64,000 bases of DNA from Corallococcus caeni. GTDB lineage: Bacteria > Myxococcota > Myxococcia > Myxococcales > Myxococcaceae. The stretch is taken from NCBI RefSeq assembly GCF_036245865.1, contig NZ_BTTW01000008.1:160396-224395 (forward strand). Direction: 5' to 3'. The notes beneath the pieces are model-generated. The model searched no databases and was not told the DNA's origin. It saw only the letters and a program-made list of their open reading frames with translations. The translations under genes were made by a program, and so were the position numbers. Shown piece after piece: positions 4,340 through 61,386 of the stretch. Position 1 is the stretch's first letter. The number at the start of each line of letters is the position of its first letter.

Positions 4340-4808
4340 CTCGACGACCTCGAGGCGCGCGGCGCGGACGGGCGCGCCTACCCCCACGGCGAGCAGGTGC
4401 TGCCCGCGGACGCCCACTTCGACGAGACGTACCGGCGGCAGCCCCTGGCCACGAGCCCGGCGAGTCATTACCGGAATCGAGTCGAAGGATGCTCAGACAG
4501 TGGATGCTCGGACTGGCCTTCGGGCGGCGGGCTGCAACGCGGTGGATGGCCAGGAGCGGTTCGATGAGGCCGGGAGCACCCGCTCCCAGTCCCCGGAGGT
4601 GGCCCGCGGCACGGCGCTCAACGGCCACGAGCTGAATGGCCGCGAGCTCAACGGCACCCAGCTCAGCGGGCGCGAGTTGGACGGCACTTCAGCTGACTGG
4701 AGGAAGAAGGGCGGGCGGCTCCGCGCCCTCTCGAATGCAGGAACACCGGGTGGCCTGATGAGGGCCCACCCGGTGTCCTGGCAATCCGGTGCGTCGCGGA
4801 CGGGCGCG

Positions 4809-45221: not shown

Positions 45222-45842
45222 TCATTGGGGCGAATAGGTGTGGGTCAGGTCGATGACCAGGGACTCCACGATGGGCGGAAACGCGAGCTCGATGTGGCCC
45301 CGGTTCAGATCCGCGCGGGTGACCTGGTAGGAGGTTCCGCCGAACTCGTCATCGAAGGTGAAGTCATCGTTGTCGAAGATGGAGATCTCGATGGGGTGCA
45401 GGAGGAGGTTGGACGTGATGACCTCACAGCTGCCCGAGCGCCATTCGGGCTCCCAGCTCTCGTCCTCGGCGGTGCGGGTGCGCTCCGGAGCGGAGGGGCA
45501 GCGCATCTCCACGACGACGTCGGGAGGGGAGCCGTCGGAATCCCAGTCCTCGCCGTTGTCCGGATCGACGTCCACGATGAAGGCCCGGCGGGGCTGCACC
45601 CGCGTCCGCATCACGCCCGCGTAACAGGCCCGGGTATCGAGCCGACAGACATTGCCGTCGGGACAGCTCTCACAGAGGGCGCCGCTGGAGCCGCAGAGGG
45701 CGTCGCCGAGGTCGAGGACGCACACGTTGCTCACGGAGCAGCAGCCGTTCGCGCAGCTCTCCGGAGTGCACTCGGGCTCACCGCAGGCCGGGAGGAAGAG
45801 GGCGCACGTCAGGGCCATCAGGAGCAGGCAGGGCGTTTTCAT
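45222..45842 (-). CDS. Cys-rich lipoprotein (paralogue A)
   Basis: The start is the internal ATG (MKTPCLLLMALTCALFLPACG) of track ORF 45222..45920. It is paralogous to the 50338..51018 product. Confidence 0.6.
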   Translation of the reverse strand: MKTPCLLLMALTCALFLPACGEPECTPESCANGCCSVSNVCVLDLGDALCGSSGALCESCPDGNVCRLDTRACYAGVMRTRVQPRRAFIVDVDPDNGEDWDSDGSPPDVVVEMRCPSAPERTRTAEDESWEPEWRSGSCEVITSNLLLHPIEISIFDNDDFTFDDEFGGTSYQVTRADLNRGHIELAFPPIVESLVIDLTHTYSPQ

Positions 45843-45880
45843 GACGGTCGTGAAGGCTACCAGAGGCGGTTCACTTCGCG

Positions 45881-47098
45881 GTGACTGCGGCCAGGATGTA
45901 TCGGGGCAGCAGATCCTCACGGAACTTCCGCCAGACCCGCGGTGAACAGCACGACGAGGTCGAACTTCATGAGATCGGCGATCTGCTATTCATTCGTCTC
46001 GTGACATCCCACGTCGGCCAATACCAGCGCATCCGCCTGCTCGCCGAAGGCATCATCGAGGACCATCTGGCCAAGGCCGCTGGCCCGCAGGGCATCGAGA
46101 AGACGCTGGTGCTCCAGTGCCTCCGGCCGGACATGGCCGAGCAGATGGAGTTCCCGGAGCTGTTCCTCGACACGGCGAGGACCGCCGCCCGGCTCACGCA
46201 CCCGCACCTCGTGAAGGTCTTCGACTTCGGTGCGGCGGACGGCACGTACTTCCTAGCCAGGGAGCACGTCGATGGGATCAGCCTGAGCAGGTTGATCAAG
46301 CACCTGGCGGTCCAGCGGATGACCCTGCCGGCGACGCTGTGCGCGCGCATCATCTCGCAAGCCTGCGAGGGGCTCGCCTATGCCCACGACCTGACCCACC
46401 CCGAGACGCACGAGCCGCTGAGGCTCATCCACCGCTGCATCCGGCCGTACAACATCCTCCTGTCGCGTCAGGGGACGACCAAGGTGGTGGACTTCGGCAT
46501 CGACCATCTCCGGTCCCGGTGGACCCCCGAACACCCGCTCCCCGTCATGAGCAAGTACGTGTACATGGCGCCCGAGGAGATAAGGGGCGAGCGGGCAGAC
46601 CGGCGGGTCGACGTCTACGCGCTCGGAGTGGTGCTCTACGAGTTGCTCACCACGCGCAGGCCCTTTTCGTCCACGTCCGAATGGGATTTGCCTCGGGCCG
46701 TCATGTCCGAGCCCATGGTGCCCGCCGAGCAGCACCGCCCGGACCTGCCCGGAGTCCTGCGAGCCATCCTCGCCCGGGCGCTCGCGAAGGATCGGGACCA
46801 GCGCTACCCGGACTGCCAGGCGTTCCGGGAGGACCTGGAGCAGTTCATCCGCTCGGAGGGTGAGCCGGTGACACCGCGGCAGGTGGCCCAGCTCGTCCAG
46901 CAGATCACCGCGAGCGACGACCCAGCCGTCAGTGCTCCGGCTCCGGACGACCTGGAGACCCAGGCACGGCTCCGCTTGGGACGACGCTGGATCCTCGCGG
47001 CGGCCGTGGGCCTGGGGGTCCTGCTCGGAGGCGGCGCGCTGCTCTGGAAGATGAGCGCTGCGCCCGAGCCCGAGAAGGTCCGCGCTACTCCACCGTGA
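45881..47098 (+). CDS. Ser/Thr kinase-like protein, a predicted pseudokinase, with a C-terminal TM anchor
   Basis: The kinase fold has DFG and APE, but the catalytic loop reads HRCIRPYN instead of HRDLKPxN. No VAIK lysine is evident. A C-terminal helix (WILAAAVGLGVLLGGGALLW) follows. Confidence 0.55.
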   Translation: MTAARMYRGSRSSRNFRQTRGEQHDEVELHEIGDLLFIRLVTSHVGQYQRIRLLAEGIIEDHLAKAAGPQGIEKTLVLQCLRPDMAEQMEFPELFLDTARTAARLTHPHLVKVFDFGAADGTYFLAREHVDGISLSRLIKHLAVQRMTLPATLCARIISQACEGLAYAHDLTHPETHEPLRLIHRCIRPYNILLSRQGTTKVVDFGIDHLRSRWTPEHPLPVMSKYVYMAPEEIRGERADRRVDVYALGVVLYELLTTRRPFSSTSEWDLPRAVMSEPMVPAEQHRPDLPGVLRAILARALAKDRDQRYPDCQAFREDLEQFIRSEGEPVTPRQVAQLVQQITASDDPAVSAPAPDDLETQARLRLGRRWILAAAVGLGVLLGGGALLWKMSAAPEPEKVRATPP

Positions 47099-48536
47099 GC
47101 GGGAACAAGGCGGATGCCGGATGGCCCGTCACCGTGAGGACGCGAGGCTCCTCCTTGTCCTGCCACTGCCAGTATTTGGCCTGCGACTGCCACGAGCACG
47201 GCTCGACGGTGATGGTCAGCGGTCCTGAGCCCTCTCCCCGGGGCTTGAAGGTCACCTCCAGCTCCGCGGTGGCCTCTCCCTCCAGGCCGGCGGCAACCCC
47301 CACGAGATTCACGCGGTTCTCATCCACCATCGGGAGTGGCTGGCCGCGATACCGCACGCTCACGTCCACCACGCGAGCGCCGACGAGCGCCCCGGACACC
47401 CGGATCCGCACGGCCTCACACGAGGTCCCGTCATTGCGCACCACCGAACGCCACGTCTCGGTCACGGGCACGGACACGGTCAGCGGTCCCGAGGAGTGCT
47501 CGGTCCAGTGGAGCGCGGGCGTCTTGTAGCCCACGTGCATGAGCGGCGCGCCCGGGCTCACCGGCCGGTTCGAGGCGTGGAGGCGCAAGGGGGGGCCGGG
47601 CTCGGCGGTGAGCAGGAAGAGCGCGTCACTGTCCTCGGCGCCCACCCACCACCGGTCAGTCCCCGCGGGCGTCACGGACACGATGCGGGGCCACTCTCCC
47701 ACGAGTGTCTCCATCACCTGGAGCCCGGGCAGGGACACCAGGAGGGTCTTGTCCTGCACGAAGAGGAGCGCCCGGGACGCGTCGAGAACGCACACCCCGG
47801 CACCACCCCAGATCAGTTCATCCTCTTCATCGTCATCACCCTCTTGGTCCGGGATGGACCCGAGCAGGGTGCCGTCGAGCGCGAAGTGGAGGAGCGCCGT
47901 CTGCCGGTAGTTGATGACGAGCAGGAGAAGCACGCCCTGGGGAGTGGCTAGGGCCCGCCAGATGTCCTGCTCACCGCCCGGCTCCACCTGAAGCGCGCCC
48001 TCCGGCTGAGTCGCCCCCGGGCGGAGCACGTAGACGCGGCCTCGGCCTTTCTCGAGGACGGTGATGCCAAAGGGGCTCGAGTCGAGGAACGCCCCATCGG
48101 AAACCTGCCGGAGGGGGAGCCCCTCCGAGTATCCGTACCCGTGCGTGGCGTGCACGGGCTTGGGCAAGGTCATGGGCTCCCATCGCTGCCCGGACGCATC
48201 GGTCGCGAAGAGGGTGGTCAGCTTAAGGGCGCCGTCCACCACCGCTCCGACGAGCCGGTCCCCATCGGAGGTGAGATCGAAGCACTCCCTCGGAAAGGCC
48301 AGGACGGGAGCGCTCGCGCCGGCTCCTGCGGAGAAGACACGGCGATCCCCGTTTCCCACCCAGACGTCCTGTCCCTCATTGAGCGCGGCGAGCACCACGG
48401 GCGCGGACGGATGATCCACCACGTCTCCACTGGCCTCCCGGCGCACGCCTTCGGCTCCATGGAAGACGATGAGCCGCTGCGGTCTGAGATCAAACAACCA
48501 CGGTCCACGGGCCAGGAGGCGACGTCTCGGGTACAT
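47085..48536 (-). CDS. Hypothetical protein
   Basis: The 483-aa ORF has GC-rich third codon positions. It is convergent with the pseudokinase and overlaps it by 14 bp. Confidence 0.45.
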   Translation of the reverse strand: MYPRRRLLARGPWLFDLRPQRLIVFHGAEGVRREASGDVVDHPSAPVVLAALNEGQDVWVGNGDRRVFSAGAGASAPVLAFPRECFDLTSDGDRLVGAVVDGALKLTTLFATDASGQRWEPMTLPKPVHATHGYGYSEGLPLRQVSDGAFLDSSPFGITVLEKGRGRVYVLRPGATQPEGALQVEPGGEQDIWRALATPQGVLLLLVINYRQTALLHFALDGTLLGSIPDQEGDDDEEDELIWGGAGVCVLDASRALLFVQDKTLLVSLPGLQVMETLVGEWPRIVSVTPAGTDRWWVGAEDSDALFLLTAEPGPPLRLHASNRPVSPGAPLMHVGYKTPALHWTEHSSGPLTVSVPVTETWRSVVRNDGTSCEAVRIRVSGALVGARVVDVSVRYRGQPLPMVDENRVNLVGVAAGLEGEATAELEVTFKPRGEGSGPLTITVEPCSWQSQAKYWQWQDKEEPRVLTVTGHPASALFPLTVE

Positions 48537-48700: not shown

Positions 48701-50068
48701 CTATGCCGAGGGTGACCACCAGCCGGAAGTGTCCGGAAGGGAGACCACCCGCTCCTCCAAGGCTTCGACACAATCCGGATGCCTGCCTTCAGTCTGGCGG
48801 AGTGCTTCCGCGAGCGCCTCCATCCGACTCCACTCCTGTTCTTTGAACGTGTGGCTGCGGATGACGCTTGGGATGGGGGCGTCATTCTCCTCCAGCCCCC
48901 ATCGTGCCCGCTCACGTTCCAGTTGGGTTCCCCGTAGCAACATGAGGGGAAACGCCTTGAGCACGGGCACTTGCCGACGGAGGCAGAAGTCGACCGTTTG
49001 TCGAAAGGACTCCAACGTCTGCTCGGGCAGCCCGAAGATGATGGAAACCTCGAAAGGGATGCCGCGCGCGTGGAGCTTGCGGACTCCTTCCACCACCTTC
49101 TCGAGATGATTCACGCGCTCCACGGCGCGTGCCTCCTTCTCGTGGATGGTCTGCAGGCCAAACTCAAGCCGGACCGCGAGCCCTTCGCAGGCGTCGAGGA
49201 ACTCATCATCCAACGTCGAGAAGTGGCACTGCAAAGACAGCCGTCCGCGATAGTCAAGCCGCTGGAAGGTTCGCAGCACCGCCAGCGCGTGATCCCCGAG
49301 ATTGAAGAGCGGATCCAGCACGGCGATGTCGTTCACTCCCGAGCGCACGAACAGCCCAATCTCTTCCTCAAGCCGAGCCATGGGGAGGTCACGGCGACGC
49401 AACCGGCTGCCGGCCTCCCGGTGCTGGCAGAACGAGCAGCGGAAGGGACACCCGCGCTGGGTTTCCCACCGGATGAACCGTTGCTCCCCTGAAAGTTCAA
49501 TCACGTCTTCGAGGAAGGGGGACGCAAGCGTCTCCAGCTTCGCCTGTGCTTGGACGCCAGCATCCAACTGGCCAGCCCAATGGACTCCTGGAAACCGGAT
49601 TCGATCGGACGTGGCGGCAATCGCCACCATGGCCTCTTCGCCATAACCCCGGACGAATCCATCCGCTTCAGGGTAGAGCTGCTCAAGGCCCGGTCCCGCG
49701 TAGGAGACCTGGGGCCCTCCGAGGATGATACGCCCCGCGAATCCGCTCCGACGCAGCGCCCCCAGAAGCTTCTTCACCACCCGGTCGTTCCACACGTAGA
49801 CGCCAAGGCCCAAGTCTACGTCCCGAGCCTCAAGTCCCCGTGCACCTTCAAGCACGCTCCACAGGATGTGCTCCTCACTGAAGTCAGAGCGATTGATGGC
49901 AAACGAGAACGCTCGCACGTCGACGTTCGCCTTTCGCAGTGCCGCGACGATGGAGGCATGTCCCAGGGGGAGGCGAGGGTCTTTGTCGCGCGTCCAATCA
50001 ATCGAGACCAGAATGACCCGCCGTGGCTGAGGTGGGACAGAAATGACCTCGGAGCTCCGACTGGACAT
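48701..50068 (-). CDS. B12-binding-domain radical SAM protein
   Basis: The 455-aa protein has an N-terminal B12-binding-like domain (RVILVSIDW...). It carries the CPFRCSFC (Cx3Cx2C) radical SAM cluster motif. Confidence 0.8.
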   Translation of the reverse strand: MSSRSSEVISVPPQPRRVILVSIDWTRDKDPRLPLGHASIVAALRKANVDVRAFSFAINRSDFSEEHILWSVLEGARGLEARDVDLGLGVYVWNDRVVKKLLGALRRSGFAGRIILGGPQVSYAGPGLEQLYPEADGFVRGYGEEAMVAIAATSDRIRFPGVHWAGQLDAGVQAQAKLETLASPFLEDVIELSGEQRFIRWETQRGCPFRCSFCQHREAGSRLRRRDLPMARLEEEIGLFVRSGVNDIAVLDPLFNLGDHALAVLRTFQRLDYRGRLSLQCHFSTLDDEFLDACEGLAVRLEFGLQTIHEKEARAVERVNHLEKVVEGVRKLHARGIPFEVSIIFGLPEQTLESFRQTVDFCLRRQVPVLKAFPLMLLRGTQLERERARWGLEENDAPIPSVIRSHTFKEQEWSRMEALAEALRQTEGRHPDCVEALEERVVSLPDTSGWWSPSA

Positions 50069-50256: not shown

Positions 50257-50310
50257 GATACGAAAACGCCGCCCCACTTCCGATGGACCGGAAGTGGGCG
50301 GCGATGACAC
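50257..50310. repeat. Palindromic repeat element, copy Y (15-16 bp inverted repeat CGCCGCCCCACTTCCG/CGGAAGTGGGCGGCG)
   Basis: It lies downstream of the minus-strand lipoprotein gene. It is about 80% identical by eye to the element at 59708..59768. Confidence 0.55.
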
Positions 50311-50337: not shown

Positions 50338-51018
50338 CTATTCGGCGTAGTAGGTGGTGACCTGGAAGGCCACGGACATCAACGCACTGGAACCCGTGAG
50401 CTCCACGACGCCACGGTCGATGTCGGAGCGGGTCATCTGGTACTGCGCCGACGCAATCGGGTCGTCGAAGATGGCGTCAACATCAATGACGGTGAACTGG
50501 ATGGGGGCCGAAAGCAGATCGGTACTGAGGACGTCGCATGAGCCCTTCGTCCAGGTGGGGGTGAAGCTCTCAACTTCCTCCGAAGGGGGGACGGCGGCTG
50601 GCGTGTTGGGGCACGACAGCTGAATCACGACATCCGGCGGCGAGCCATCAACGTCCCAGTCGCTGTTGTCAGCGGGATCCAGCGGCGCGATCTGCGCACG
50701 AAGGGGCTGGATCTTCGTGCGGATGGTGGGGGTGTAGCACTGCTGCTTGGAAGGGTGGCACATCATCCCGGTTGTGCACTTGGAGCAGGTGCTGCCGTTA
50801 GGACCGCATGCGTCGGCGGTGCGAGTCATGACGCACTTGTTGGTGGTTGGGTCGCAGCAGCCTTCACAGCTCTCCGCAGTACAAAGCTCGGTGAGCGGAG
50901 GCGGGTCATCCGTGATGGGGTCGGGGCCGCCTGGGCTGAGGTCCTCGGGCCCACATGCGGCAAGCAACAAGAAGGACGCCAAGCCAAGGCAAGTAAGGAT
51001 TCGATGGGTGATTTTCAT
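50338..51018 (-). CDS. Cys-rich lipoprotein (paralogue B)
   Basis: The 226-aa protein has the lipobox LLLAACG. It shares CxxGCC, a DWDxDGSPPDVV block and C-terminal similarity with the 45222..45842 product. Confidence 0.65.
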   Translation of the reverse strand: MKITHRILTCLGLASFLLLAACGPEDLSPGGPDPITDDPPPLTELCTAESCEGCCDPTTNKCVMTRTADACGPNGSTCSKCTTGMMCHPSKQQCYTPTIRTKIQPLRAQIAPLDPADNSDWDVDGSPPDVVIQLSCPNTPAAVPPSEEVESFTPTWTKGSCDVLSTDLLSAPIQFTVIDVDAIFDDPIASAQYQMTRSDIDRGVVELTGSSALMSVAFQVTTYYAE

Positions 51019-51024
51019 TGTCTT

Positions 51025-52782
51025 TTAGTTGAGTTGAAGCACGAGAACGCGGGTACTTTTGTCCATCCGCACTTCGGCCGTTGACATCCTGATCACAGGA
51101 ACGCTCGCAACCTGGGTGCGCCGTCCTCCTGGCGTGGCCGCGAGAACGATGGGCGCGGGGGTTGTAGATGCGAGCGCAGTGACGGTTTGAGGTTCGGCAT
51201 AGCCAACGAGGAAGAGTTCGCCAGTGGCTCGTACACGGTGAACCTCGATTCCGTCTGGCAGGTTCCCGTAGGTCGGAGTGTTGGCGTTGTAGGTTGGAAT
51301 CGAATCCATCCGAAGGAAGGCGTAGCGACCTCTCGGAAGCTGAGCGATCCGCGATCCTCGCTCGGATTCTGACGCAGGCACGACCTGGTGCTGCTGGCGC
51401 ACAGCCCTGATCTGTGTACCTGGAGCCATGGGCACGAAAGCGGAAGGTGGCTGCTCGATGGGACGCACATCCGTCATTGGTGGTGATCCCTTGCCGCTTT
51501 CAGGTCGCTGCGAGACCACGGCAATCCCCCCTGCGATCACCCCTCCCGCGATGACGACCGCGAGCCGACTGGAGCCCGAGCGACTCGGTGTAGCAGGCGG
51601 TGCTGGGACTTGGATGACAGGAGAGACCGTGATGACTGGAGAGACCGTGACAGTCGCGGTGCTCGGCGCTGGCGTTGAGCCAGCCGGCACGGATGGCGCG
51701 GGCTCAGGAGGTTTCGGGGGGCTGTGCGACGTCGGCGCAGTCTGCACCGTGGCGTTGGCGCTTGCGTCGGATCGTGTGGAGGGTGGCGGTGTCGGTTGGC
51801 CCGCGGTTCGAGGGTACGAGAGCTGGGCGCTGGCCGCGCCAAATTGTTTCCGCAGGTCGGGGAAGAACTTGTGGCAGTCGATTCCGCCATAGCAGCGAAG
51901 CCCCTTGCTACCTCTCAGATTGGCGACCCTGCTGAAGAGATTTGGATTGCGGGCCTCAATCACGGCGTCTTCTTCTCCGTAGAACCCCCAGAGGATGTCG
52001 ACGTCCTTGTGTCGATCGACGTCAATGGTTGCGAGGGTCTGGGTGAAGACGTCATCCCACCCGCCGTACCCGATCACGACCAGCGTGTGGTCTTGAAGAA
52101 TCTGGATCAACTCCGCGGAGACGTGTCTGCGCTCGCGACCAAGCTGGATACCCGTGTGTAACGTAGGCGAACGGTGCCAGTAGCCGTGAAGATGGATGAT
52201 GTGTGTGGATTTGGATGAGGCAGGGACTGTCTGCCCAAACGGGATGTCACTGGCCACGATGGTGCGATGGAAATCGCCACCGGCCACCTTCACCGATGCC
52301 GAGATGAGGGGATCAAAGTTCGTGGTCAAGACAGGACCAAACGTCTCAGCTCTTTCCACCAGCAATCTACCGAGGTGCTCCGTCGCGGGCGGCAAGGCCC
52401 ATCCGCCATGGTCCAGATCCAACTGGTCGTCAGTCGCCGCTCCATCGCGTTTGCGGTCCACCCGTGCGCGAAGCACCGCCTCTCGAACAACCCTCTCGGA
52501 GACATCCTTATCGCAATGGCCTTGTACGAAGCGCATGGCCCATTGGTATTTGTTTTCTTTGGTGTACTCGCGCTCCGTGTCGAATTTCGCTTGGAATCCG
52601 GCCGGAACGTGCTCGCGGATGAGATCCAGCATTGCATTCACCCCAGGAACCTGAGGGGCGTCAGCTCGTTCCTGCGTCGACAAGGGAGAGCCCACTAGAA
52701 ACGCGATTTTCCGGTTTTTAGAGGCAGCGATGACAGCGTTTGGGAGCGCATCCTTCGGATGCAGGAACGGGTAGGAACTCAT
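51025..52782 (-). CDS. SIR2-like (SIR2_2 family) protein with a Pro/Thr-rich linker, one TM helix and a C-terminal domain of unknown function
   Basis: The N-terminal roughly 300 aa carry KIAFLVGSPLS (Rossmann), TTNFDPLI (catalytic Asn) and IIHLHGYWH (catalytic His). A TM helix (LAVVIAGGVIAGGIAVV) and a roughly 150-aa C-terminal domain follow. GC content is lower than in the surrounding DNA. Confidence 0.75.
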   Translation of the reverse strand: MSSYPFLHPKDALPNAVIAASKNRKIAFLVGSPLSTQERADAPQVPGVNAMLDLIREHVPAGFQAKFDTEREYTKENKYQWAMRFVQGHCDKDVSERVVREAVLRARVDRKRDGAATDDQLDLDHGGWALPPATEHLGRLLVERAETFGPVLTTNFDPLISASVKVAGGDFHRTIVASDIPFGQTVPASSKSTHIIHLHGYWHRSPTLHTGIQLGRERRHVSAELIQILQDHTLVVIGYGGWDDVFTQTLATIDVDRHKDVDILWGFYGEEDAVIEARNPNLFSRVANLRGSKGLRCYGGIDCHKFFPDLRKQFGAASAQLSYPRTAGQPTPPPSTRSDASANATVQTAPTSHSPPKPPEPAPSVPAGSTPAPSTATVTVSPVITVSPVIQVPAPPATPSRSGSSRLAVVIAGGVIAGGIAVVSQRPESGKGSPPMTDVRPIEQPPSAFVPMAPGTQIRAVRQQHQVVPASESERGSRIAQLPRGRYAFLRMDSIPTYNANTPTYGNLPDGIEVHRVRATGELFLVGYAEPQTVTALASTTPAPIVLAATPGGRRTQVASVPVIRMSTAEVRMDKSTRVLVLQLN

Positions 52783-52822: not shown

Positions 52823-54388
52823 TCAGGCGGCCCGCTCGCGTTGACCGCCCTGTTCCTCCTCTTGGAGCGCCAAGGTCTTACGGTACTCCGCCGCCTCCGC
52901 GAGCTGGGTCAGCTCGAACTCCCCGTGGTGCTTGCGCACGGCCTGGGCGATCTCATCCAAGCTGACGCGGAAGAACTCCTTGCGCTCATTGATGCGGTTG
53001 ACGCGCCTGTTCGCGAACGTCCTGTGGAGTGCGTTCTCCAGGGCCGGGGCGTCCGAGGTCCGGATGATGGCGTGGACATCGAACTCGAAGGGCACGGATG
53101 CATCCCCCAGCTCGTCGATGCGGTCCTGGGGCACGAGCCTCCTCGTCATTCCCAGCTTGAACACACCTTCCCCAAACGAGCCGATGTTGGAGATGACGTA
53201 GACGTGCCCCGTCCGCGTGAGCTGGGCCTGGGAGATGGCTCGCTGCTTCTCCAGGTCTTCGGCCACGCGGCGCTCCAGCTCGGCGATGCGTTCCAGCAAC
53301 TTCTGCTGCTCGGAGCCCTTTGCCCGATCGTAGTCCGCCTTCGCCTTCGCCAGGGCCTCGGCGTCACGCTTCGACTCGCGCTCCGCCTCCAGCTTCGCCT
53401 TCTCCAGCTCGCGCTGGGCGGCCTCCTCCTCTCGCATCTGCTCCCGGATGCGGCGCTGTTCGTCCCGCTCCTGTTGCACCTTCTCCGAGTACTCATACGC
53501 GAGCATCAGCTCCTCGACCTTGAGCTTGACGTAGCGCCTGTCGATGACACACCGCTGTATCTCCACAAGGCCATTTATGGCGGCAGCTGCCTTCTCGATG
53601 CGCGTCTCCATTGCCTTCACGTTCTTGTACGAAACCTTCGCGACACACGCATCCGCTTCGCCATTGAAGGCCCGGAGCATCAGCTTCAAGGTACGGTCCG
53701 TCTGCTTCTTGCCCTCCGCCTTGCTGCCATTGACCTCCCACTGGAGAGAGCACGTGGCGGCTTCCTTGTTCTTCAGCATCTGTTTCTGAGAATCGCGGAG
53801 CCTCTCCAGGCGGTCCTCGTATTCCTTCACGGACGAGAGGGCGTACACCGGCTTGTAGAAGCCAAAGGAGAGCAGGACCTCCTCTTCCTCAAGGGCCTTC
53901 AGCTCGGCCTTCAACCGGGCGAGGCTTGACTCCAGGCTGGTTCGCTCGGTGTTCGCCTGCTTTCGCCGCGCTTCCGCCTCCTCCATGGCGCGTGTCGCGC
54001 TCTGGGTCGTCTTCGCCGTCTCTTCACGGATCCGGCTCAGCTCCGCCTTCGCCCGGCTCTGTTCGGCCGCGATGGCTTGCTCCACGTCCGCCTTGGCCCG
54101 GGCCAGCTGGGTTTCCACCCGCTTCTGCTCCGCCGCCAGCGCGTTGTCCGCCTCGCTCCTGGCTTTCGCCAACTCTTCACGGACCCGCTTCTGCTCCGCG
54201 GCAAGCGCAGCGTCCGCGTCCGTGCGCGCCCGCGTCAACTCCTCGGCCACCCGCCGCCGTTCGGCCTCCAGGTCCAGGATGGGCTTGAAGCGCTCCTGGA
54301 CGGCCTTGAGCCGACTTCGTGTCTGGAACCACAACCCGAGGAGCAACAGACTCAATACGCCCAGTCCAACGGCAATCATCGTGGTCAT
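52823..54388 (-). CDS. DUF4041-like coiled-coil protein with a C-terminal T5orf172 (GIY-YIG-like, MUG113) domain and an N-terminal TM helix
   Basis: The start is the internal ATG (MTTMIAVGLGVLSLLLLGLWF) of track ORF 52823..54496, preceded by AGGAGA. It has 22-aa coiled-coil repeats. The C-terminus reads GHVYVISN...FKLGMTRR...DRIDEL...PFEFDVHAII...LHRTFANRRVN...EFF. Confidence 0.8.
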   Translation of the reverse strand: MTTMIAVGLGVLSLLLLGLWFQTRSRLKAVQERFKPILDLEAERRRVAEELTRARTDADAALAAEQKRVREELAKARSEADNALAAEQKRVETQLARAKADVEQAIAAEQSRAKAELSRIREETAKTTQSATRAMEEAEARRKQANTERTSLESSLARLKAELKALEEEEVLLSFGFYKPVYALSSVKEYEDRLERLRDSQKQMLKNKEAATCSLQWEVNGSKAEGKKQTDRTLKLMLRAFNGEADACVAKVSYKNVKAMETRIEKAAAAINGLVEIQRCVIDRRYVKLKVEELMLAYEYSEKVQQERDEQRRIREQMREEEAAQRELEKAKLEAERESKRDAEALAKAKADYDRAKGSEQQKLLERIAELERRVAEDLEKQRAISQAQLTRTGHVYVISNIGSFGEGVFKLGMTRRLVPQDRIDELGDASVPFEFDVHAIIRTSDAPALENALHRTFANRRVNRINERKEFFRVSLDEIAQAVRKHHGEFELTQLAEAAEYRKTLALQEEEQGGQRERAA

Positions 54389-54401
54389 GGTTGTCTCCTG
54401 T

Positions 54402-57400
54402 TCAGGCGCTGGCGGCGCGCATCTGGTTCTCCGCCGCGGGCTCCTCGCGCACCACGGCCGGCAGCTCCGCCGCCTCTTCCCGAAGCACCTCTTCAACGTG
54501 CGCGACGATCCGGGCGACCTCTTCCGATGGCGAGCGGAACCAGTCCGTGGACCAGATGCGGTGCAGCCTCCATCCCAGGCCCTTCAGCACCTGATCCCGG
54601 AGGCGGTCCCGGTCCCGGGCGGAACGTGACGAGTGATACCTCTCTCCGTCACACTCGACGCCAAGGACGTAACGGCCCGCTTGCCGAGGATGCCGCAGGG
54701 CCATGTCGATGAAATAACCCGCGACGCCCACCTGCGGGACCACTTCGAATCCCCGCGCGACGAGCGCCTTCGCGACGGCAATCTCGAAGTCGGAGTCGGG
54801 TGGCCGACCGCTGCCCACGCCGTGCGCCACCTTCTCTCCCTTGGCTTCGGACAGGTATCGCTGCAGGACGCGCATCCCGCGGGGACTGCTTTCCTGGACC
54901 TTGAGCTCCGACGGGTCGAAGGACGCGAACACCGTCAGCGCGCACCGCGCCCGCGTGAAGAGGACGTTCAGCCGGCGGTACCCGTCCGCTTGATTGATGG
55001 GCCCGAAGTTCATCCGGAAGCGCTCGTTCTTGTCGGGACCGAACGTGACCGACACGAAGATGGCGTCGCGCTCGTCGCCCTGGACGTTCTCCAGGTTCTT
55101 CACGTCGAAGGGCATGGGGGACTTCTCCCACTTCGCCAGGAAGGCCCGGAGGGCCGCGTCGTTCTTCTCCTCGGCAGTCACCAGGTCGTCGATGAGCTCT
55201 CGCTGCTTCGAGTTCAACGTGACGACCAGCAGGCTCTGCTCCGGGCGCGTACGCGCATGCGCCTTCACCGCCGCCAGCACCTCGCGGGCCTCGGGAACGT
55301 TCCGGTTGGACTCGTACAATCCCTGCTCCACGCGGTGGAAGTGGAGGCCCAGCCCGTCCAACTGCTCGCCGGGCGCGGGGAAGGTGATGAGGTCGCCGTT
55401 GTAGAACTCGCGGTTGCTGAAGGCGATGAGCGAGGGGTGGCGGGACCGGTAATGCCAACGCAACATGCGCATGGGAAACCGCTCCGCCGCCGCCGTGAGG
55501 ATGCTCTCCGAATCCTCCAGGAAGGACGGCCCCTGGACCTCGTCTCCCTCCGCGCCCTCGGTGTCGGCGTCCTCCTGCTCCACCTGCGCGAAGAAGCTGG
55601 TGGGAGGAAGCTGCTCCGGGTCGCCCACCACCACCAGTTGCCGACCTCGGGCAATGGCTCCCAGCGCGTCCTCGGGACGCATCTGGCTGGCCTCGTCCAT
55701 CACGACCAGGTCGAAGGTCAGCTGCCCGGCGGGCAGGTATTGGGCGACGGACTGCGGCCCCATCATGAAGCAGGGCATCAACGTCTGGAGTGCACTGCCG
55801 GCGCGTGCCACCAGCTCGCGAATGGGGAGGTGCCGCTGCTTCTTGCCCAGCTCGTGCCGCAGGAGATGCGTCTCCGTCATGCCCGCAACCTTTGCCGACG
55901 ACACGCCGGGAGGGACCGGACGCTGACTGAGTTGACGCGCCAGGTATCGGCCCTGCTTTTCGATGCAATGCGTGTCCAGGCGGGCGAACTCCTCACGCTG
56001 GGAGGCGTGAACCGCGCCCGTGAATTGATCGAGCTCCGGCTGGTCTCGCAGGATGGCTTCCGCCAGGGAGCGGAAGAAGACGGCGTCAAAGGCCGCGACC
56101 AACTGCTCCGGCTCCAGGCCGGGACGGGTGTCGACGCGCTCCAGGAACCCCAGGGTGCTCCGCGCTCGCGCGACGGCGCGCCGCTGCCGTTGGTACGCGC
56201 ACCAGGCCGGGAGCGTCGCGGACTGGCTTCGAGCCTGGCGCAGGCGCATGACCGTCGCCTGGAGCGGCTTCTCGGCGGCGGGTTCCTCCCAGGTGCCGGG
56301 CGCCATCCTTCCCAGCTCCCAGGCCTGATTGGCGGACTGGCTATAGGCGGTGAGCGCTACCTCCACGTCATGCGTGGCGGTGAGCAGGTCCGCGTGCCTC
56401 CGTGGCGTGTCCTTCCTCAGCAGCCACTCCGCCAGCCCCTCGGGCAGTGGCGCCGCGAAGAGGACGTCGACATGGCGCAGGGCGCTTCGAGGGCCCGCGA
56501 GGGACGTCTTCCGACCCCGGTATGCGATCCCTGGCAAGCCCGCCGCCGGGGCATGCGCTTCCAGCCGGTTCTCGGCTTCGCAGGCCTCGCGCACCCGGCG
56601 CAGCTGTCCCTGGAGCTGGGAAAGGGTCAAGGACGGCAGGGCATCTCCCTTTCGTGCCCAGTTCAGGACCTCACCCAGGTGTTTCAACAAGGCATCGAGG
56701 CTGTCCTGGGCCTTGCCGCAGGGTTCGGTGTTCCAGGGGGCGTGCGGCAGACCCATGCGCGTCGCGGCTTCCTGCACGGTAGTGCTCACGTCGCGGGCCT
56801 GGAGCAACTCGTCACCCCACACGCGGGTCTTCGCCAGGGCCTCCTGCCAATGGCTCGCCGGCCGCTCCAACACCGCGCGGCGGAGTTCCGCCCCTCGCTC
56901 TCCCAGCGAAAGGAGCAATGCATCGACGTTCCGGTAGGCGTCCACCCACGAAAGAATCCGGTCGAAACGCGTATCGACTCCCTGGAAGCGGGCGCCCAGG
57001 GTCGCTTTCAAGGTCGCGTCCTCGTGGAATCGCTCCCGCGCCGCGTGGTGCGCCAGCAGGTCGGTGTAACCCTGGAGCAACACGGGCCGCGTCGGACGGA
57101 CGCCGTGGGACATGGCCTGGAAGTCCCGCCTCGCCGCACGCCATGCACCCGAGAGCCAGGGGATGAAGGGCGCGGTCGAAACCGCGACGGCATGTGCCTT
57201 GAGCGTCGTGAGCGGAGGAACGAGTTCGGGCATGAAGCGCACCGCGAGCGCTCGCGCCTGGTCCTTCAGCTCCGAGCAGGTGCTGCCGGCCTTCCGAAGC
57301 AACTCCTCGGCCTCGCGCTCGACCCAACGCGCGTCCCGCCACTCCAGGGCGGCGTCATCCAGGACCGCCATCGCTTCGACGACGCGGACAAACGTCTGGA

Positions 57401-59606
57401 GCTGCTGCGGCGTCCAGAGCGTGACGTCCACCTCCAGGCATGAGGCCACTGCAGCCATGAACCGGCGTCCCTGTGCCAGGGCCCGGGCTGCTGCATCCAC
57501 CGCTTCATGCGCGCGTGTCAGCGTGATGAGCGTGGTGTCTGGCGAAAGCAGGCGCAGGGCCGTGTCGAGGATGGCTTGCGCGTCACGCACGGTGGGTACG
57601 GTCAGGTCCTCCTGGGCACGCCAGCCCGCCTCCAGCCCCGCCCACCGCGCCTGGACCGACTCGATGGCATCGAGCAGGGCGCGCAATCCCTCGCGCTGCG
57701 TGGCATCAAGCAGGGTAGGGATCAGCTCCGGAGGAGCCCCCTCCGGAAGGCGTGGAAGGACCCGGACGTTTGAGACCAGGGCATCCGCCGCGAGCGCGCT
57801 CGACCTGGGGGTGATGCCAGTTCGGACTGTGAACGCAGCCAGCGCCTTCTCCAGGAGCAGCGTGGACTCTTCCCAGGCCGCGATCCGTTGAACGAGTGTC
57901 TGGCGGTCCTTGTCCGTCAGCGCGTCGTTCGTCACCCCCGCAAAGGGGTGGGCGCAGAGGACGGGAGCGACGCGGCGAACGTCCCCCAACTGCGCAGCGA
58001 GGCCCCGAACCGTGTCGCGGACCTCCGCCAGCGCAGTGGAGGACATGCTCTCCGCGCCCTCGAAGCGCAGGCCCTCCAACTCGACGACTGCTTCTCCCAG
58101 CTCCGCTTCAGTGCGACTGACCTTCCAGAACACGTCGTGCGGTGACATGCCGAGCGCCCCGAATGGCTTGTGCATCCGCTCGGTATGCGCGCGCAGGATG
58201 CCCGCGGCGCTCGAGACCTGTTCGGTGAGCGGCCGGGGAGCGCTCGCGCCTGCGTCCAGGTTGAGCCTTCGCCGCAGGTCCTCCATGAACTGCTGCTTCT
58301 GGGTCTTGTGGCTGTGCAGCTCCAGGCAGAACTCACCCAGCCCCGCCTGCTGGAGGCGGCGTGAGACGACCTCCAGCGCCGCCAGCTTCTGCGTGACGAA
58401 CAGCACGGTCTTGCCCGCCGCCAGCGCAGCTCCGATGAGGTTGGTGATGGTCTGTGACTTCCCGGTGCCGGGCGGTCCCTGCACCACCAGGTTCTCACCC
58501 CGGAGCACGTCCACCAGCACGCTGTGCTGACTGCTGTCCGCGTCCGTGATGAGGGGTGGAGGATTCAGCTCCGGCGAGTCCAGGTCATAGACCTCGCTTC
58601 GGCGTTCCCGGAGGCCGCCTCCGCCTCCTGCGCCTCCTCCCGGTTCATTCGCCTGCGCCTGTCCTCCCATCAGCGTGCGAACGAGCGGGTTGGCCAGCGG
58701 GGAACCGTTCTGCGGCCATCGGGTTGGCTCCAGGTCCCGCCACATCAGGAGCCGCCCGAAGGACAGCAGCGTCAGCGTGACCTGCCGCTCCAGCCCCCAT
58801 CCGGGGCGCAGGCCCTTGAGCAGCGCCGTCACCTTGTCGAAGTACGCCTCCAGGCCTTCCTCGGCGGAGAAGGCCGGCAGCGCGATGCCGAACTCCTGCC
58901 TCAGCTTCTCCTGGAGCGTGAGGTTCAGCTCGATGGACTCGCCTTCGTTGTAGTCGACCTCGTAAGCGTGGACCTGGGTGTCCGGGTGGGCCTGGCCGCG
59001 CTTGAGGCTCACCGGCATGAGCACGAGCGGTGCGCTGCGCGGCTTCTCCTGCCGGGTATCACCAGACTCGTACCAGCGCAGGAACCCGAAGACGAAGTGG
59101 AGCAGGTTGGCTCCGGTCTCCTGGATGGCTGTCTGCGCGAGCCCCTGGAGGCGGTGCAGGTGGCCCTCCAGATCCTCCGGGAAGTACAACGTCTGCAGGT
59201 GGCGGTCCTGATGCTTGCGAGGAGGGGTGCCGCTCTCCGTGGGGGCCGCCTTGGGCAGCTCATACCGGGTGTCGATGCCCAGGCGCTTCGCCTGTTGAAG
59301 CAGCAGCTTCTGCCGGGCGTCCTTGCTGGGGACCTCCTCGGTCATCGAGAACACCACGGTCGCGGCGGCGGGGTCGAAGTCCTCCTGTTCCTCGGAGTCC
59401 TGCTCCGGTGGCGTCACCGGGAGGAACGTGAGCGCGCGGTGGTTGCTCAGCCGCTCGAAGACGACACCTGGAAGTTCATCCACGATTCGCAGCGACGTCC
59501 TGGCCGTGTGCTTGAAGTGGAGGAGCCGGTTGGTTGCGCTCAAATCCAGCAACCGGTTGCGTTGCCGCTGAAGCTCTTTCAGCATGACCGAGTCGTGCGG
59601 AGTCAT
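54402..59606 (-). CDS. Giant DUF4011-family SF1 (Upf1-like) helicase with a C-terminal DUF559 / PD-(D/E)xK endonuclease-like domain
   Basis: The 1734-aa protein has the N-terminal DUF4011 signature LxxLxxRLLDLSATNRLLHFK, Walker A VQGPPGTGKSQTI, motif II VVMDEASQM and motif VVVGDPEQLPP. The C-terminus (ECDGERYHSS...DRDRLRDQVLKGLGWRLHRIW) is Vsr/DUF559-like. Confidence 0.85.
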   Translation of the reverse strand: MTPHDSVMLKELQRQRNRLLDLSATNRLLHFKHTARTSLRIVDELPGVVFERLSNHRALTFLPVTPPEQDSEEQEDFDPAAATVVFSMTEEVPSKDARQKLLLQQAKRLGIDTRYELPKAAPTESGTPPRKHQDRHLQTLYFPEDLEGHLHRLQGLAQTAIQETGANLLHFVFGFLRWYESGDTRQEKPRSAPLVLMPVSLKRGQAHPDTQVHAYEVDYNEGESIELNLTLQEKLRQEFGIALPAFSAEEGLEAYFDKVTALLKGLRPGWGLERQVTLTLLSFGRLLMWRDLEPTRWPQNGSPLANPLVRTLMGGQAQANEPGGGAGGGGGLRERRSEVYDLDSPELNPPPLITDADSSQHSVLVDVLRGENLVVQGPPGTGKSQTITNLIGAALAAGKTVLFVTQKLAALEVVSRRLQQAGLGEFCLELHSHKTQKQQFMEDLRRRLNLDAGASAPRPLTEQVSSAAGILRAHTERMHKPFGALGMSPHDVFWKVSRTEAELGEAVVELEGLRFEGAESMSSTALAEVRDTVRGLAAQLGDVRRVAPVLCAHPFAGVTNDALTDKDRQTLVQRIAAWEESTLLLEKALAAFTVRTGITPRSSALAADALVSNVRVLPRLPEGAPPELIPTLLDATQREGLRALLDAIESVQARWAGLEAGWRAQEDLTVPTVRDAQAILDTALRLLSPDTTLITLTRAHEAVDAAARALAQGRRFMAAVASCLEVDVTLWTPQQLQTFVRVVEAMAVLDDAALEWRDARWVEREAEELLRKAGSTCSELKDQARALAVRFMPELVPPLTTLKAHAVAVSTAPFIPWLSGAWRAARRDFQAMSHGVRPTRPVLLQGYTDLLAHHAARERFHEDATLKATLGARFQGVDTRFDRILSWVDAYRNVDALLLSLGERGAELRRAVLERPASHWQEALAKTRVWGDELLQARDVSTTVQEAATRMGLPHAPWNTEPCGKAQDSLDALLKHLGEVLNWARKGDALPSLTLSQLQGQLRRVREACEAENRLEAHAPAAGLPGIAYRGRKTSLAGPRSALRHVDVLFAAPLPEGLAEWLLRKDTPRRHADLLTATHDVEVALTAYSQSANQAWELGRMAPGTWEEPAAEKPLQATVMRLRQARSQSATLPAWCAYQRQRRAVARARSTLGFLERVDTRPGLEPEQLVAAFDAVFFRSLAEAILRDQPELDQFTGAVHASQREEFARLDTHCIEKQGRYLARQLSQRPVPPGVSSAKVAGMTETHLLRHELGKKQRHLPIRELVARAGSALQTLMPCFMMGPQSVAQYLPAGQLTFDLVVMDEASQMRPEDALGAIARGRQLVVVGDPEQLPPTSFFAQVEQEDADTEGAEGDEVQGPSFLEDSESILTAAAERFPMRMLRWHYRSRHPSLIAFSNREFYNGDLITFPAPGEQLDGLGLHFHRVEQGLYESNRNVPEAREVLAAVKAHARTRPEQSLLVVTLNSKQRELIDDLVTAEEKNDAALRAFLAKWEKSPMPFDVKNLENVQGDERDAIFVSVTFGPDKNERFRMNFGPINQADGYRRLNVLFTRARCALTVFASFDPSELKVQESSPRGMRVLQRYLSEAKGEKVAHGVGSGRPPDSDFEIAVAKALVARGFEVVPQVGVAGYFIDMALRHPRQAGRYVLGVECDGERYHSSRSARDRDRLRDQVLKGLGWRLHRIWSTDWFRSPSEEVARIVAHVEEVLREEAAELPAVVREEPAAENQMRAASA

Positions 59607-59707: not shown

Positions 59708-59768
59708 CAGCCCACGAAAACGCCGCCTCGCTTCCGGAGGACCGGAAACGGGCGGCGTTTGGCACTGC
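59708..59768. repeat. Palindromic repeat element, copy X; likely terminator of the ABC-F gene (10-bp inverted repeat AAACGCCGCC/GGCGGCGTTT around a sub-hairpin)
   Basis: It lies immediately downstream of the minus-strand ABC-F stop and upstream of the helicase gene. It is about 80% identical to copy Y at 50257..50310. Confidence 0.55.
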
Positions 59769-59787: not shown

Positions 59788-61386
59788 CTACCGGCGCTTC
59801 TGCGCCGCGTCCGCGTGCTTCTCCATGAACTCCGAATACGGGCCGTTGAAGTCGAGCACTTCCTTGCCCTGCTCCAGGCTCCAGATGCGGGTCGCGACCT
59901 CGGAGATGAGCTCCTGGTCGTGCGTCACGCAGATGACCGTGCCTTCGAACTTCGACAGGCCTTCCGCCAGCGCCGCGATGGACTCCAGGTCCAGGTGGTT
60001 CGTCGGCTCGTCGAGAATCAGCACGTTGTCCTGCATGATCATCAGCTTGGACAACAGCACGCGCACCGTCTCACCACCGGAGAGCGTGTCCGTGGGCTTC
60101 ATCCGCTCCTCACCCGAGAAGAGCATCCGGCCCAGCACGCCGGAGATCTCCTCGTTGGTCAGCTTCTCGCTGATCTCCCGGAGGTAGCCGAAGCACGTCG
60201 TGCCCTTGTGGATGACGCCGTGGTGGTCCTGCGGCAGGTAGCCCACCGTCGCCTGGTGACCCCAGGTGATGGTGCCCGCGTCCGGCTCCAGCTGCCCCGC
60301 CAGCATCTTCACCAGCGTGGACTTGCCCACCGCGTTGCGGCCGATGACGCAGATGCGCTCGCCCTTGCAGACCAGCCCCTTGAACGGCTTGATGACCGGC
60401 ACCCCGTCGAAGGACTTCTTCAGGCCCTCGAACATCAGCGTCTGCCGGCCGCTGACCACCTTCTGGTCGAACCGGATGAACGGCCGCGCGATGTTCGAGC
60501 GCTTCAGGTCCTCCGTCTTCAGCTTGTCGATCTGCTTGATGCGGCTCTGCACCTGCGACGCGCGCGTACCCGCGTGGAAGCGCGCCACGAAGTCCTGCAG
60601 CTGGGCGATCTTCTTCTTCTTCTCCGCCGTCTCGGACTCCACCCGGGTCCGCAGCTGCGACTTCTGCCGGACCATGTCGTCGTAACCACCCGTGTACTGG
60701 ATGATGGTCTCGTAATCGATGTCCGCGATGTGCGTGCAGATGGAGTTCAGGAAGTGCCGGTCGTGGCTGATGGTGATCAGCACGCCCTCGTAGGCATGGA
60801 GGAAGTTCTCCAGCCAGCGGATGGAGTCGATGTCCAGGTTGTTCGTGGGCTCGTCCAACAGCAGCCCTTCCGGCTTGCCGAACAGCGCCTGCGCGAGCAA
60901 CACGCGCAGCTTCAGGCCGCCGGTGAGCTGGCGCATGGGCTCTTCGTGGAAGGACTCCTCGATGCCAAGGCCCGCCAGCAGCGTGGCCGCGTCGCTCTCC
61001 GCGGAATAGCCGTCCTCCTCCGCGATGACGCCTTCCAGCTCACCCAGCCGGTTGCCGTCCTCTTCCGTGATGTCGGCCTTGGCCAGGAGCTTGTTCTTCT
61101 CGTCCATGGCCGCCCACAGGTGGCGGTTGCCCATCAGCACCACGTCGATGACGCGGTCGTTCTCGTAGCGGAAGTGGTCCTGGCGCAGGATGCCCAGCTT
61201 CCGCGGGCGGATGATCTCGCCCATGTCCTGCTCCTCGTCACCCGCGAGGATCTTCATGAACGTGGACTTGCCGGCCCCGTTCGGACCGGTCAGGCCGTAG
61301 CGACGGCCCGGCGAGAAGGCGACGTTGACCTCCTCGAAAAGTTTCTTGGGCCCGTAGGCCTTGGAGACGTTGATGACGTTGAACAT
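59788..61386 (-). CDS. ABC-F family ATPase (two ABC domains, EttA/YbiT-like)
   Basis: The start is the internal ATG (MFNVINVSKAYG) of track ORF 59788..61803. It has two sets of Walker A/B and LSGG signature motifs (GPNGAGKST, GRNAVGKST). Confidence 0.85.
   Translation of the reverse strand: MFNVINVSKAYGPKKLFEEVNVAFSPGRRYGLTGPNGAGKSTFMKILAGDEEQDMGEIIRPRKLGILRQDHFRYENDRVIDVVLMGNRHLWAAMDEKNKLLAKADITEEDGNRLGELEGVIAEEDGYSAESDAATLLAGLGIEESFHEEPMRQLTGGLKLRVLLAQALFGKPEGLLLDEPTNNLDIDSIRWLENFLHAYEGVLITISHDRHFLNSICTHIADIDYETIIQYTGGYDDMVRQKSQLRTRVESETAEKKKKIAQLQDFVARFHAGTRASQVQSRIKQIDKLKTEDLKRSNIARPFIRFDQKVVSGRQTLMFEGLKKSFDGVPVIKPFKGLVCKGERICVIGRNAVGKSTLVKMLAGQLEPDAGTITWGHQATVGYLPQDHHGVIHKGTTCFGYLREISEKLTNEEISGVLGRMLFSGEERMKPTDTLSGGETVRVLLSKLMIMQDNVLILDEPTNHLDLESIAALAEGLSKFEGTVICVTHDQELISEVATRIWSLEQGKEVLDFNGPYSEFMEKHADAAQKRR

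Follow-up and report, generated by a model that had tools for sequence, protein, structure and literature searches.

INTRODUCTION

Hhe is an anti-phage protein whose name and first description are said to come from Gao et al. 2020. In this study we analysed a window of 64,000 nucleotides (nt) from Corallococcus caeni (assembly GCF_036245865.1, contig NZ_BTTW01000008.1, positions 160,396 to 224,395), in which an open reading frame (ORF) of 1734 amino acids (aa) encodes a distant homologue of Hhe, here called the window helicase. In E. coli, hhe confers defence as a single gene encoding both helicase and nuclease domains (PMC11482910; bioRxiv 10.1101/2024.04.14.589459). Candidate triggers of hhe are some DNA-metabolism genes of phage T7 and one Bas63 gene, and several phage genes act as counters; in PhageMaP, phage NAD+-synthesis genes weakly counter E. 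coli hhe (PMC11482910). The second system of relevance is PD-lambda-1, renamed SNIPE: one gene for a membrane-anchored nuclease that cuts phage DNA as it is injected (PMC13190303, Saxton et al. 2026). The words helicase, Hhe and DUF4011 are never used in that paper (PMC13190303). Both families are thus already known, and the sole unexplained feature of the locus described here is a clade-specific operon of the two. We propose that the window gene is probably an accessory anti-phage gene of the Hhe family that heads a variable defence hotspot.

RESULTS

A distant but full-length Hhe homologue

The gene and its parts, all on the minus strand, are as follows.

54402..59606 (stop codon included), minus strand: Hhe-family helicase-nuclease ORF, 1734 aa, ATG start (ORF listing, Pfam, PADLOC, NCBIfam)
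58452..58478, minus strand: Walker A motif GPPGTGKSQ, aa 377-385, invariant in 42 homologues
55737..58256, minus strand: all-alpha insertion of ~840 aa (aa 451-1290) that splits the first RecA domain
55602..55697, minus strand: helicase motif II DEASQ (aa 1304-1308) and motif III VVVGDPEQLPP (aa 1325-1335)
54924..55481, minus strand: second RecA domain, AAA_12, aa 1376-1561 (Pfam)
54498..54788, minus strand: C-terminal Vsr-like PD-(D/E)xK nuclease, PF18741 REase_MTES_1575, aa 1607-1703 (Pfam, alignment of 42 homologues)

Among the PADLOC models, PDC-S37, which stands for a candidate single-gene system, matches the window helicase best (E=0, 1242.7 bits), followed by Hhe (8e-278, 923 bits). The NCBIfam model NF042953, 'DUF4011 domain-containing anti-phage protein Hhe', covers almost the whole protein (1398 bits, aa 12-1727 against profile positions 2-1703 of 1797). 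The second-best NCBIfam model is 'anti-phage protein ProA' (1121 bits), and our literature search found no paper tying ProA to DUF4011 or Hhe. Plasmid genes of Vibrio and Klebsiella that PGAP names hhe are 38-41% identical to the window helicase. The Klebsiella Hhe (1893 aa) is colinear with it at 34% identity over 1660 aa, the middle region included, so that the long insertions of the two proteins align, and the Klebsiella and Vibrio proteins have the same Pfam architecture as the window helicase. Judged by these alignments, the window protein is a distant but full-length homologue of the Hhe family outside the curated equivalog. It shares with Hhe an identical order of domains (DUF4011, split AAA_11, long helical insert, AAA_12, PF18741) and all catalytic motifs, and both are accessory genes of defence islands. 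It differs in being only 34-41% identical to the named Hhe proteins and ~160-180 aa shorter. Furthermore, the window clade always has a co-oriented SNIPE gene downstream; the hhe genes examined in Klebsiella and Vibrio stand alone.

The domains had been read from the sequence before, and most of that sequence-only reading holds. All the helicase superfamily 1 (SF1) motifs it quoted (GPPGTGKSQ, DEASQ and VVVGDPEQLPP) lie in the ORF, as do its nuclease motifs, ECDGERYHSS at aa 1651-1660 and RDRLRDQV at aa 1666-1673. The N-terminal DUF4011 domain was recovered by Pfam (PF13195, aa 18-235, 1.8e-33), and a helicase-nuclease with an Upf1-like SF1 core in a defence context was correctly proposed. AAA_11 is split: one part of the match covers Walker A near aa 377, the other motif II near aa 1300. 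The C-terminal module, taken for a DUF559-type domain, is indeed a Vsr-like PD-(D/E)xK nuclease but not DUF559 proper: the DUF559 profile reaches 18.1 bits and so stays under its 20.6-bit cut-off, and PF18741 matches instead (1.3e-36, 125 bits). The module thus belongs to the MTES_1575 family of Vsr-like nucleases, which is related to DUF559. The proposed kinship with MkoA of the Mokosh system stood in part. The core does resemble MkoA (PADLOC, 1e-28), but the match is confined to aa 1297-1589, and the full-length relative is Hhe/PDC-S37. What had been overlooked is that the architecture as a whole is that of Hhe/PDC-S37, and that the neighbouring T5orf172 gene is SNIPE/PD-lambda-1, a known stand-alone system.

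MkoA and MkoC of Mokosh have in common with the window helicase an Upf1-like SF1 helicase core of the COG1112 type. MkoC matches at 3e-19, and the joint span of both models lies within aa 1297-1594. The MkoA match, confined to that core, reaches 98 bits against 1243 for PDC-S37, and DUF4011 and a Vsr-like domain are both missing from MkoA. Pfam detected no PLD domain in any product of the six genes scanned between 47085 and 59606. We therefore rejected membership in Mokosh, as there is no full-length MkoA match and no PLD partner or domain among these products. For Nhi, no model was among the PADLOC matches of the window helicase at E<=0.01. The best sequence matches in the PDB are the solved Upf1-like SF1B helicases IGHMBP2, Sen1 and Dna2, in the Walker A and motif II regions, and Dna2 is a helicase-nuclease too. 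However, these matches are weak (1e-6 to 6e-5 over 40-60 residues), and the accessory domains and the nuclease family differ.

Long spurious ORFs are common in high-GC genomes, and a shadow ORF of 936 aa lies on the strand opposite the helicase gene. Nevertheless, 54402-59606 is a genuine gene and not a chance high-GC ORF, because the protein has more than 7700 homologues at E<=1e-20, shares its architecture with all 120 best matches listed, and is under purifying selection, with an overall ratio of nonsynonymous to synonymous divergence (dN/dS) of 0.12-0.24. The closest match, at 98% identity, comes from Corallococcus caeni. A homologue from Corallococcus sp. EGB (88% identity) is annotated with 1474 aa and lacks the DUF4011 N-terminus; this short copy may be truncated, frameshifted or mis-called at its start.

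A conserved motor and nuclease around a fast-evolving insert

Residue conservation was scored over 42 aligned homologues. Walker A, DEASQ, GD..QLPP and the paired arginine-finger residues R1544/R1545 are invariant, as are the nuclease residues D1634, D1653, G1654 and Y1657, and E1651 and H1658 are nearly so. Because the residues of motor and nuclease are invariant or nearly so, both activities should be intact. The most divergent part of the protein is formed by the first 720 aa of the insert (aa 451-1170). In homologues of 68-69% overall identity (L004-L006, L093), identity drops to 53-62% in the insert but reaches 93-95% in the Walker A segment; at 39% overall identity the insert falls to 21-22%. 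By region, dN/dS is highest in the insert (0.17-0.31) and in DUF4011 (0.13-0.29) and lowest in the motor (0.01-0.07).

An accessory gene in a variable hotspot

We compared relatives of the locus from three sources: genomes, 80 metagenome contigs and exact-protein look-ups. The features that surround the helicase gene in the window are these.

59788..61386, minus strand: conserved ABC-F ATPase gene (abcF), core left flank of the hotspot
59714..59757, minus strand: abcF terminator hairpin, -38.9 kcal/mol; copy 1 of a 55-nt repeat and left edge of the variable region
54389..54401, minus strand: spacer of 13 nt with a GGAGA Shine-Dalgarno sequence, from helicase stop to SNIPE ATG
52823..54388, minus strand: SNIPE / PD-lambda-1 homologue, 521 aa, with N-terminal transmembrane (TM) helix, coiled coil, DUF4041/SNIPE domain and T5orf172 GIY-YIG nuclease
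51025..52782, minus strand: membrane-spanning SIR2_2 protein, 585 aa, variable hotspot cargo
50338..51018, minus strand: Cys-rich lipoprotein, 226 aa, which travels with the SIR2 gene
50260..50303, minus strand: second hairpin copy, -29.9 kcal/mol, directly after the lipoprotein gene
48701..50068, minus strand: B12-binding radical SAM gene, PADLOC PDC-M51A (1.3e-151); the next, separate hotspot module
47085-48536, minus strand: ORF of 483 aa without Pfam, PADLOC or NCBIfam match
45881-47098, plus strand: Ser/Thr kinase gene

The gene order tgt, abcF, helicase, SNIPE is found repeatedly in Corallococcus and its Myxococcaceae relatives. Across these loci abcF is 95-98% identical, but the helicase only 69-90%. 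Five Corallococcus strains with one identical abcF protein have three different gene contents after abcF: one (L097) carries helicase, SNIPE, SIR2 and lipoprotein genes, a second (L099) SNIPE, SIR2 and lipoprotein genes without the helicase, and the remaining three (L096, L098, L100) radical SAM and AriA/PtuA-like ATPase genes and no helicase, SNIPE or SIR2. In Myxococcus stipitatus and Myxococcus sp. SDU36 none of helicase, SNIPE and SIR2 was found between abcF and the BrkB/YihY gene. Because gene content differs under an identical abcF, and because the helicase is absent at the site in two Myxococcus genomes, the gene is accessory and not housekeeping, and the region after abcF is a variable defence hotspot.

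The synonymous divergence (dS) between the same genome pairs is 0.42-0.47 for the helicase, 0.61-0.68 for SNIPE and 0.12-0.16 for abcF. This points to cassette alleles that are older than their flanks and therefore to exchange by recombination. Two copies of a 44-nt GC-rich hairpin, lying within 55 nt of 84% identity, bracket the 9.4-kilobase (kb) block of helicase, SNIPE, SIR2 and lipoprotein genes, and the differences between them fall on both arms and keep the stem. This repeat may be a recombination site for the swapping of modules. A recent, clean deletion of the helicase in L099 was considered and rejected: the N-terminal ~160 aa of its SNIPE differ, and the rest is 87% identical to that of L097.

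In the three radical SAM strains the radical SAM gene directly follows abcF and is accompanied by a 145-aa ORF and the AriA/PtuA-like AAA_21 ATPase gene, both of which are absent from the window. The leader after abcF in two of these strains (L096, L100) is ~75% like the sequence after hairpin copy 2 in the window. In L098 an IS66 element (TnpB and DDE transposase, 3899-6105) lies between the radical SAM and ATPase genes of the same hotspot.

Neighbouring genes

The helicase gene is the first after the abcF terminator hairpin, in the leading position that the sequence-only reading gave it; 13 nt further on comes T5orf172, then SIR2. The four co-oriented genes for helicase, SNIPE, SIR2 and lipoprotein are separated by 13, 40 and 6 nt in turn, and the first terminator comes behind the lipoprotein gene. 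G+C drops from ~0.68-0.70 in the helicase and the flanks to ~0.62 across 48.5-54.5 kb. A scan for sigma-70 promoters found nothing and is uninformative in a genome of 68% G+C; the same holds for a simple terminator scan, which missed the abcF hairpin.

The SNIPE neighbour resembles SNIPE / PD-lambda-1 in its N-terminal TM helix, its DUF4041/SNIPE domain and its GIY-YIG (T5orf172) nuclease. It scores 1.1e-20 with PF13250 and 9.3e-18 with PF10544 (Pfam) and 7e-155 with PD-Lambda-1 (PADLOC), and its N-terminus is hydrophobic: MTTMIAVGLGVLSLLLLGLWF. In E. coli SNIPE acts alone, and the word helicase is absent from its description (PMC13190303).

The SIR2_2 protein carries TTNFD and HLHG motifs, a Pro-rich linker, a TM-like segment at ~aa 405-425 and a C-terminal domain of ~160 aa, and its SIR2_2 domain is predicted to be cytoplasmic. 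PADLOC gave weak SIR2 matches only for this protein (pAgo-associated models, PDC-S65). A paralogue of the lipoprotein (38-39% identity to the product of 50338-51018) is encoded at 45222-45920 on the minus strand, adjoining a YihY/BrkB gene, and is present in those Corallococcus and other Myxococcaceae loci with a flank long enough (L002, L004-L007). The 483-aa ORF is conserved beside the Ser/Thr kinase gene in L096-L100. The kinase gene matches PD-T4-6 (8e-57); as this match may be generic kinase homology, we left the gene uncounted as defence.

Separable modules and distant relatives

SIR2 is present in L004, L005, L007 and L097 and absent from L002, L003, L006, L092, L093 and L111, despite the presence of helicase and SNIPE in all of these. 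A SIR2-TM and lipoprotein pair stands alone in an unrelated metagenome contig (L101, 7731-10177, 31-35% identity), with no SNIPE or helicase near it. SIR2 and lipoprotein genes are thus a separable two-gene module, and it looks like an undescribed one. More distant SIR2 relatives share the SIR2 domain only, and many are fused to NB-ARC/TPR modules. A 7.6-kb contig binned as Hymenobacter (L104, 1-2202) holds the 3' end of a T5orf172 (SNIPE-like) gene, a gap of 40 nt and a SIR2 gene 50% identical to that of the window, together with Rep3 replication and SocA/Panacea genes; this could mean that a small plasmid also carries the SNIPE-SIR2 pair, or else that the contig was binned wrongly.

Around the 80 distant helicase genes on metagenome contigs (31-54% identity), homologues of SNIPE, SIR2 and radical SAM are all absent, and any one neighbour family is shared by four of these 80 loci at most. 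A SNIPE neighbour was seen in 1 of ~87 more distant relatives. Hundreds of homologues of the window helicase are plasmid-borne. The plasmid-borne hhe genes examined are solitary, one of them flanked by insertion sequences, and the two nearest plasmid homologues of SNIPE have no helicase neighbour. In Pseudomonas aeruginosa a radical SAM gene stands beside a core DUF4011 gene in the flank of hotspot cDHS1 (PMC10250203). A general link between DUF4011 and radical SAM genes was nevertheless rejected, given its absence from all 80 distant loci and the occurrence of the Corallococcus radical SAM module without a helicase.

DISCUSSION

We consider it probable that the window gene is a Hhe-family, single-gene-type anti-phage helicase-nuclease, accessory and horizontally exchanged, which heads the defence hotspot after abcF. 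This reading builds on the family membership, the intact catalytic motifs, the accessory and exchanged status, the separability of the modules and the purifying selection with a fast-evolving insert that the comparisons establish. As to substrate, trigger and autonomy in this clade, we infer the following. The helicase-nuclease would act alone in the cytoplasm as an ATP-driven, Upf1-like SF1B translocase. It would load on phage DNA, probably on replication or recombination intermediates, which fits with T7 DNA-metabolism genes as candidate triggers of hhe (PMC11482910), and after ATP-driven translocation the Vsr-like domain would cut the DNA. The fast-diverging helical insert and DUF4011 might set recognition or keep the enzyme off host DNA (autoinhibition). 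SNIPE would be co-transcribed and most likely independent, a membrane-anchored nuclease cutting DNA during injection. The SIR2-TM and lipoprotein genes, and likewise the radical SAM gene, would be further separable modules.

Several points weigh against this reading. The window helicase falls under the equivalog cut-off of NF042953 (1398 versus 2000 bits), no mechanistic study of Hhe was found in our literature search, and no structural match for DUF4011 or the insert points to a function. The autonomy of the window clade is left in doubt by its constant SNIPE neighbour. In 13 of 13 relatives inspected at 56% identity or more (loci: window, L001-L007, L092, L093, L097, L111) SNIPE lies directly downstream on the same strand with a gap of 13-33 nt. 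Moreover, in a Myxococcaceae metagenome-assembled genome (L009) a different Hhe lineage of ~40% identity stands convergent with a 68%-identical SNIPE.

These last observations are the basis of an explanation in which Hhe and SNIPE form a two-gene cooperative system in the Myxococcaceae clade, where SNIPE might, for example, cut at the membrane and the helicase-nuclease process ends or escapees. Besides the constant adjacency and the Shine-Dalgarno sequence in the window gap, the pair has at least four distinct genomic surroundings: the abcF site, nitrite-reductase/LuxR genes (L003), SbcCD genes (L093) and PAAR-toxin/NorB genes (L092). However, the 13 loci are related by descent and not independent. 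L099 keeps SNIPE and SIR2 without the helicase, the E. coli versions of SNIPE and Hhe are each defensive by themselves (PMC13190303, PMC11482910), and the pairing is missing from the 80 distant helicase relatives and from the two nearest plasmid SNIPE homologues. The allele histories are also partly discordant, as in L097, whose helicase shares 72% identity with that of the window but whose SNIPE shares 93%. The convergent pair in L009 sits in a dense defence island, among whose other products are a DUF3427 helicase, an RNase H-helicase and a PLD-domain protein that bears a fragment of a ResIII helicase, so its adjacency may be chance. We therefore regard cooperation as possible but unlikely. 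The same doubt applies to its stronger form, an obligate or synergistic Hhe-SNIPE operon in Myxococcaceae in which the slot beside the SNIPE lineage would have been filled at least twice by different Hhe lineages.

Two further explanations fare much worse. The sequence-only reading had suggested one system of three genes, with the helicase as the sensor of nucleic acid and T5orf172 and SIR2 as effectors under its control. The compact, co-oriented arrangement without an internal terminator speaks for it, and the same four-gene order recurs in L004, L005, L007 and L097. Of the downstream pair, only SNIPE turned out to be conserved beside close homologues; SIR2 is optional, being absent from six loci that keep helicase and SNIPE, and neither partner accompanies the 80 distant relatives. 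SNIPE and SIR2 occur without the helicase in L099, SIR2-TM and lipoprotein occur alone in L101, and SIR2 identity among the loci (48-67%) does not track that of the helicase. The weak countering of E. coli hhe by phage NAD+-synthesis genes (PMC11482910) might seem to suggest a SIR2 link, but it carries no weight here because E. coli hhe has no SIR2 partner. A sensor role in such a system is thus unsupported as stated, and we judge the system itself highly improbable. A helicase-nuclease of housekeeping DNA repair or recombination seems equally remote, as does the housekeeping family with conserved synteny and without the two partners that the sequence-only reading had named as the alternative to its own view. 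It is true that a large DUF4011 gene is core in every P. aeruginosa isolate, together with the radical SAM gene at the cDHS1 flank (PMC10250203), that the G+C of the window helicase (0.67-0.70) matches the genome, and that the site is fixed in several Corallococcus species. Yet the gene comes and goes among strains with an identical abcF, is absent at the site in the two Myxococcus genomes, shows three to four times the dS of the flanking gene along with its lower identity, and has hundreds of plasmid-borne homologues.

In conclusion, the Hhe-family assignment names the gene and makes its function testable, in a group, the myxobacteria, where defence against phages has received little study. 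The stretch after abcF emerges as a hotspot where whole defence modules swap between close strains. Within the protein, the map of conserved and variable parts, with an invariant motor and nuclease on the one hand and a fast-evolving insert and DUF4011 on the other, suggests where to seek specificity. Finally, the constant Hhe-SNIPE operon offers a clean natural case for cooperation between two 'single-gene' systems. If such cooperation were true, one nuclease would act at DNA entry and a motor-nuclease on what gets through.

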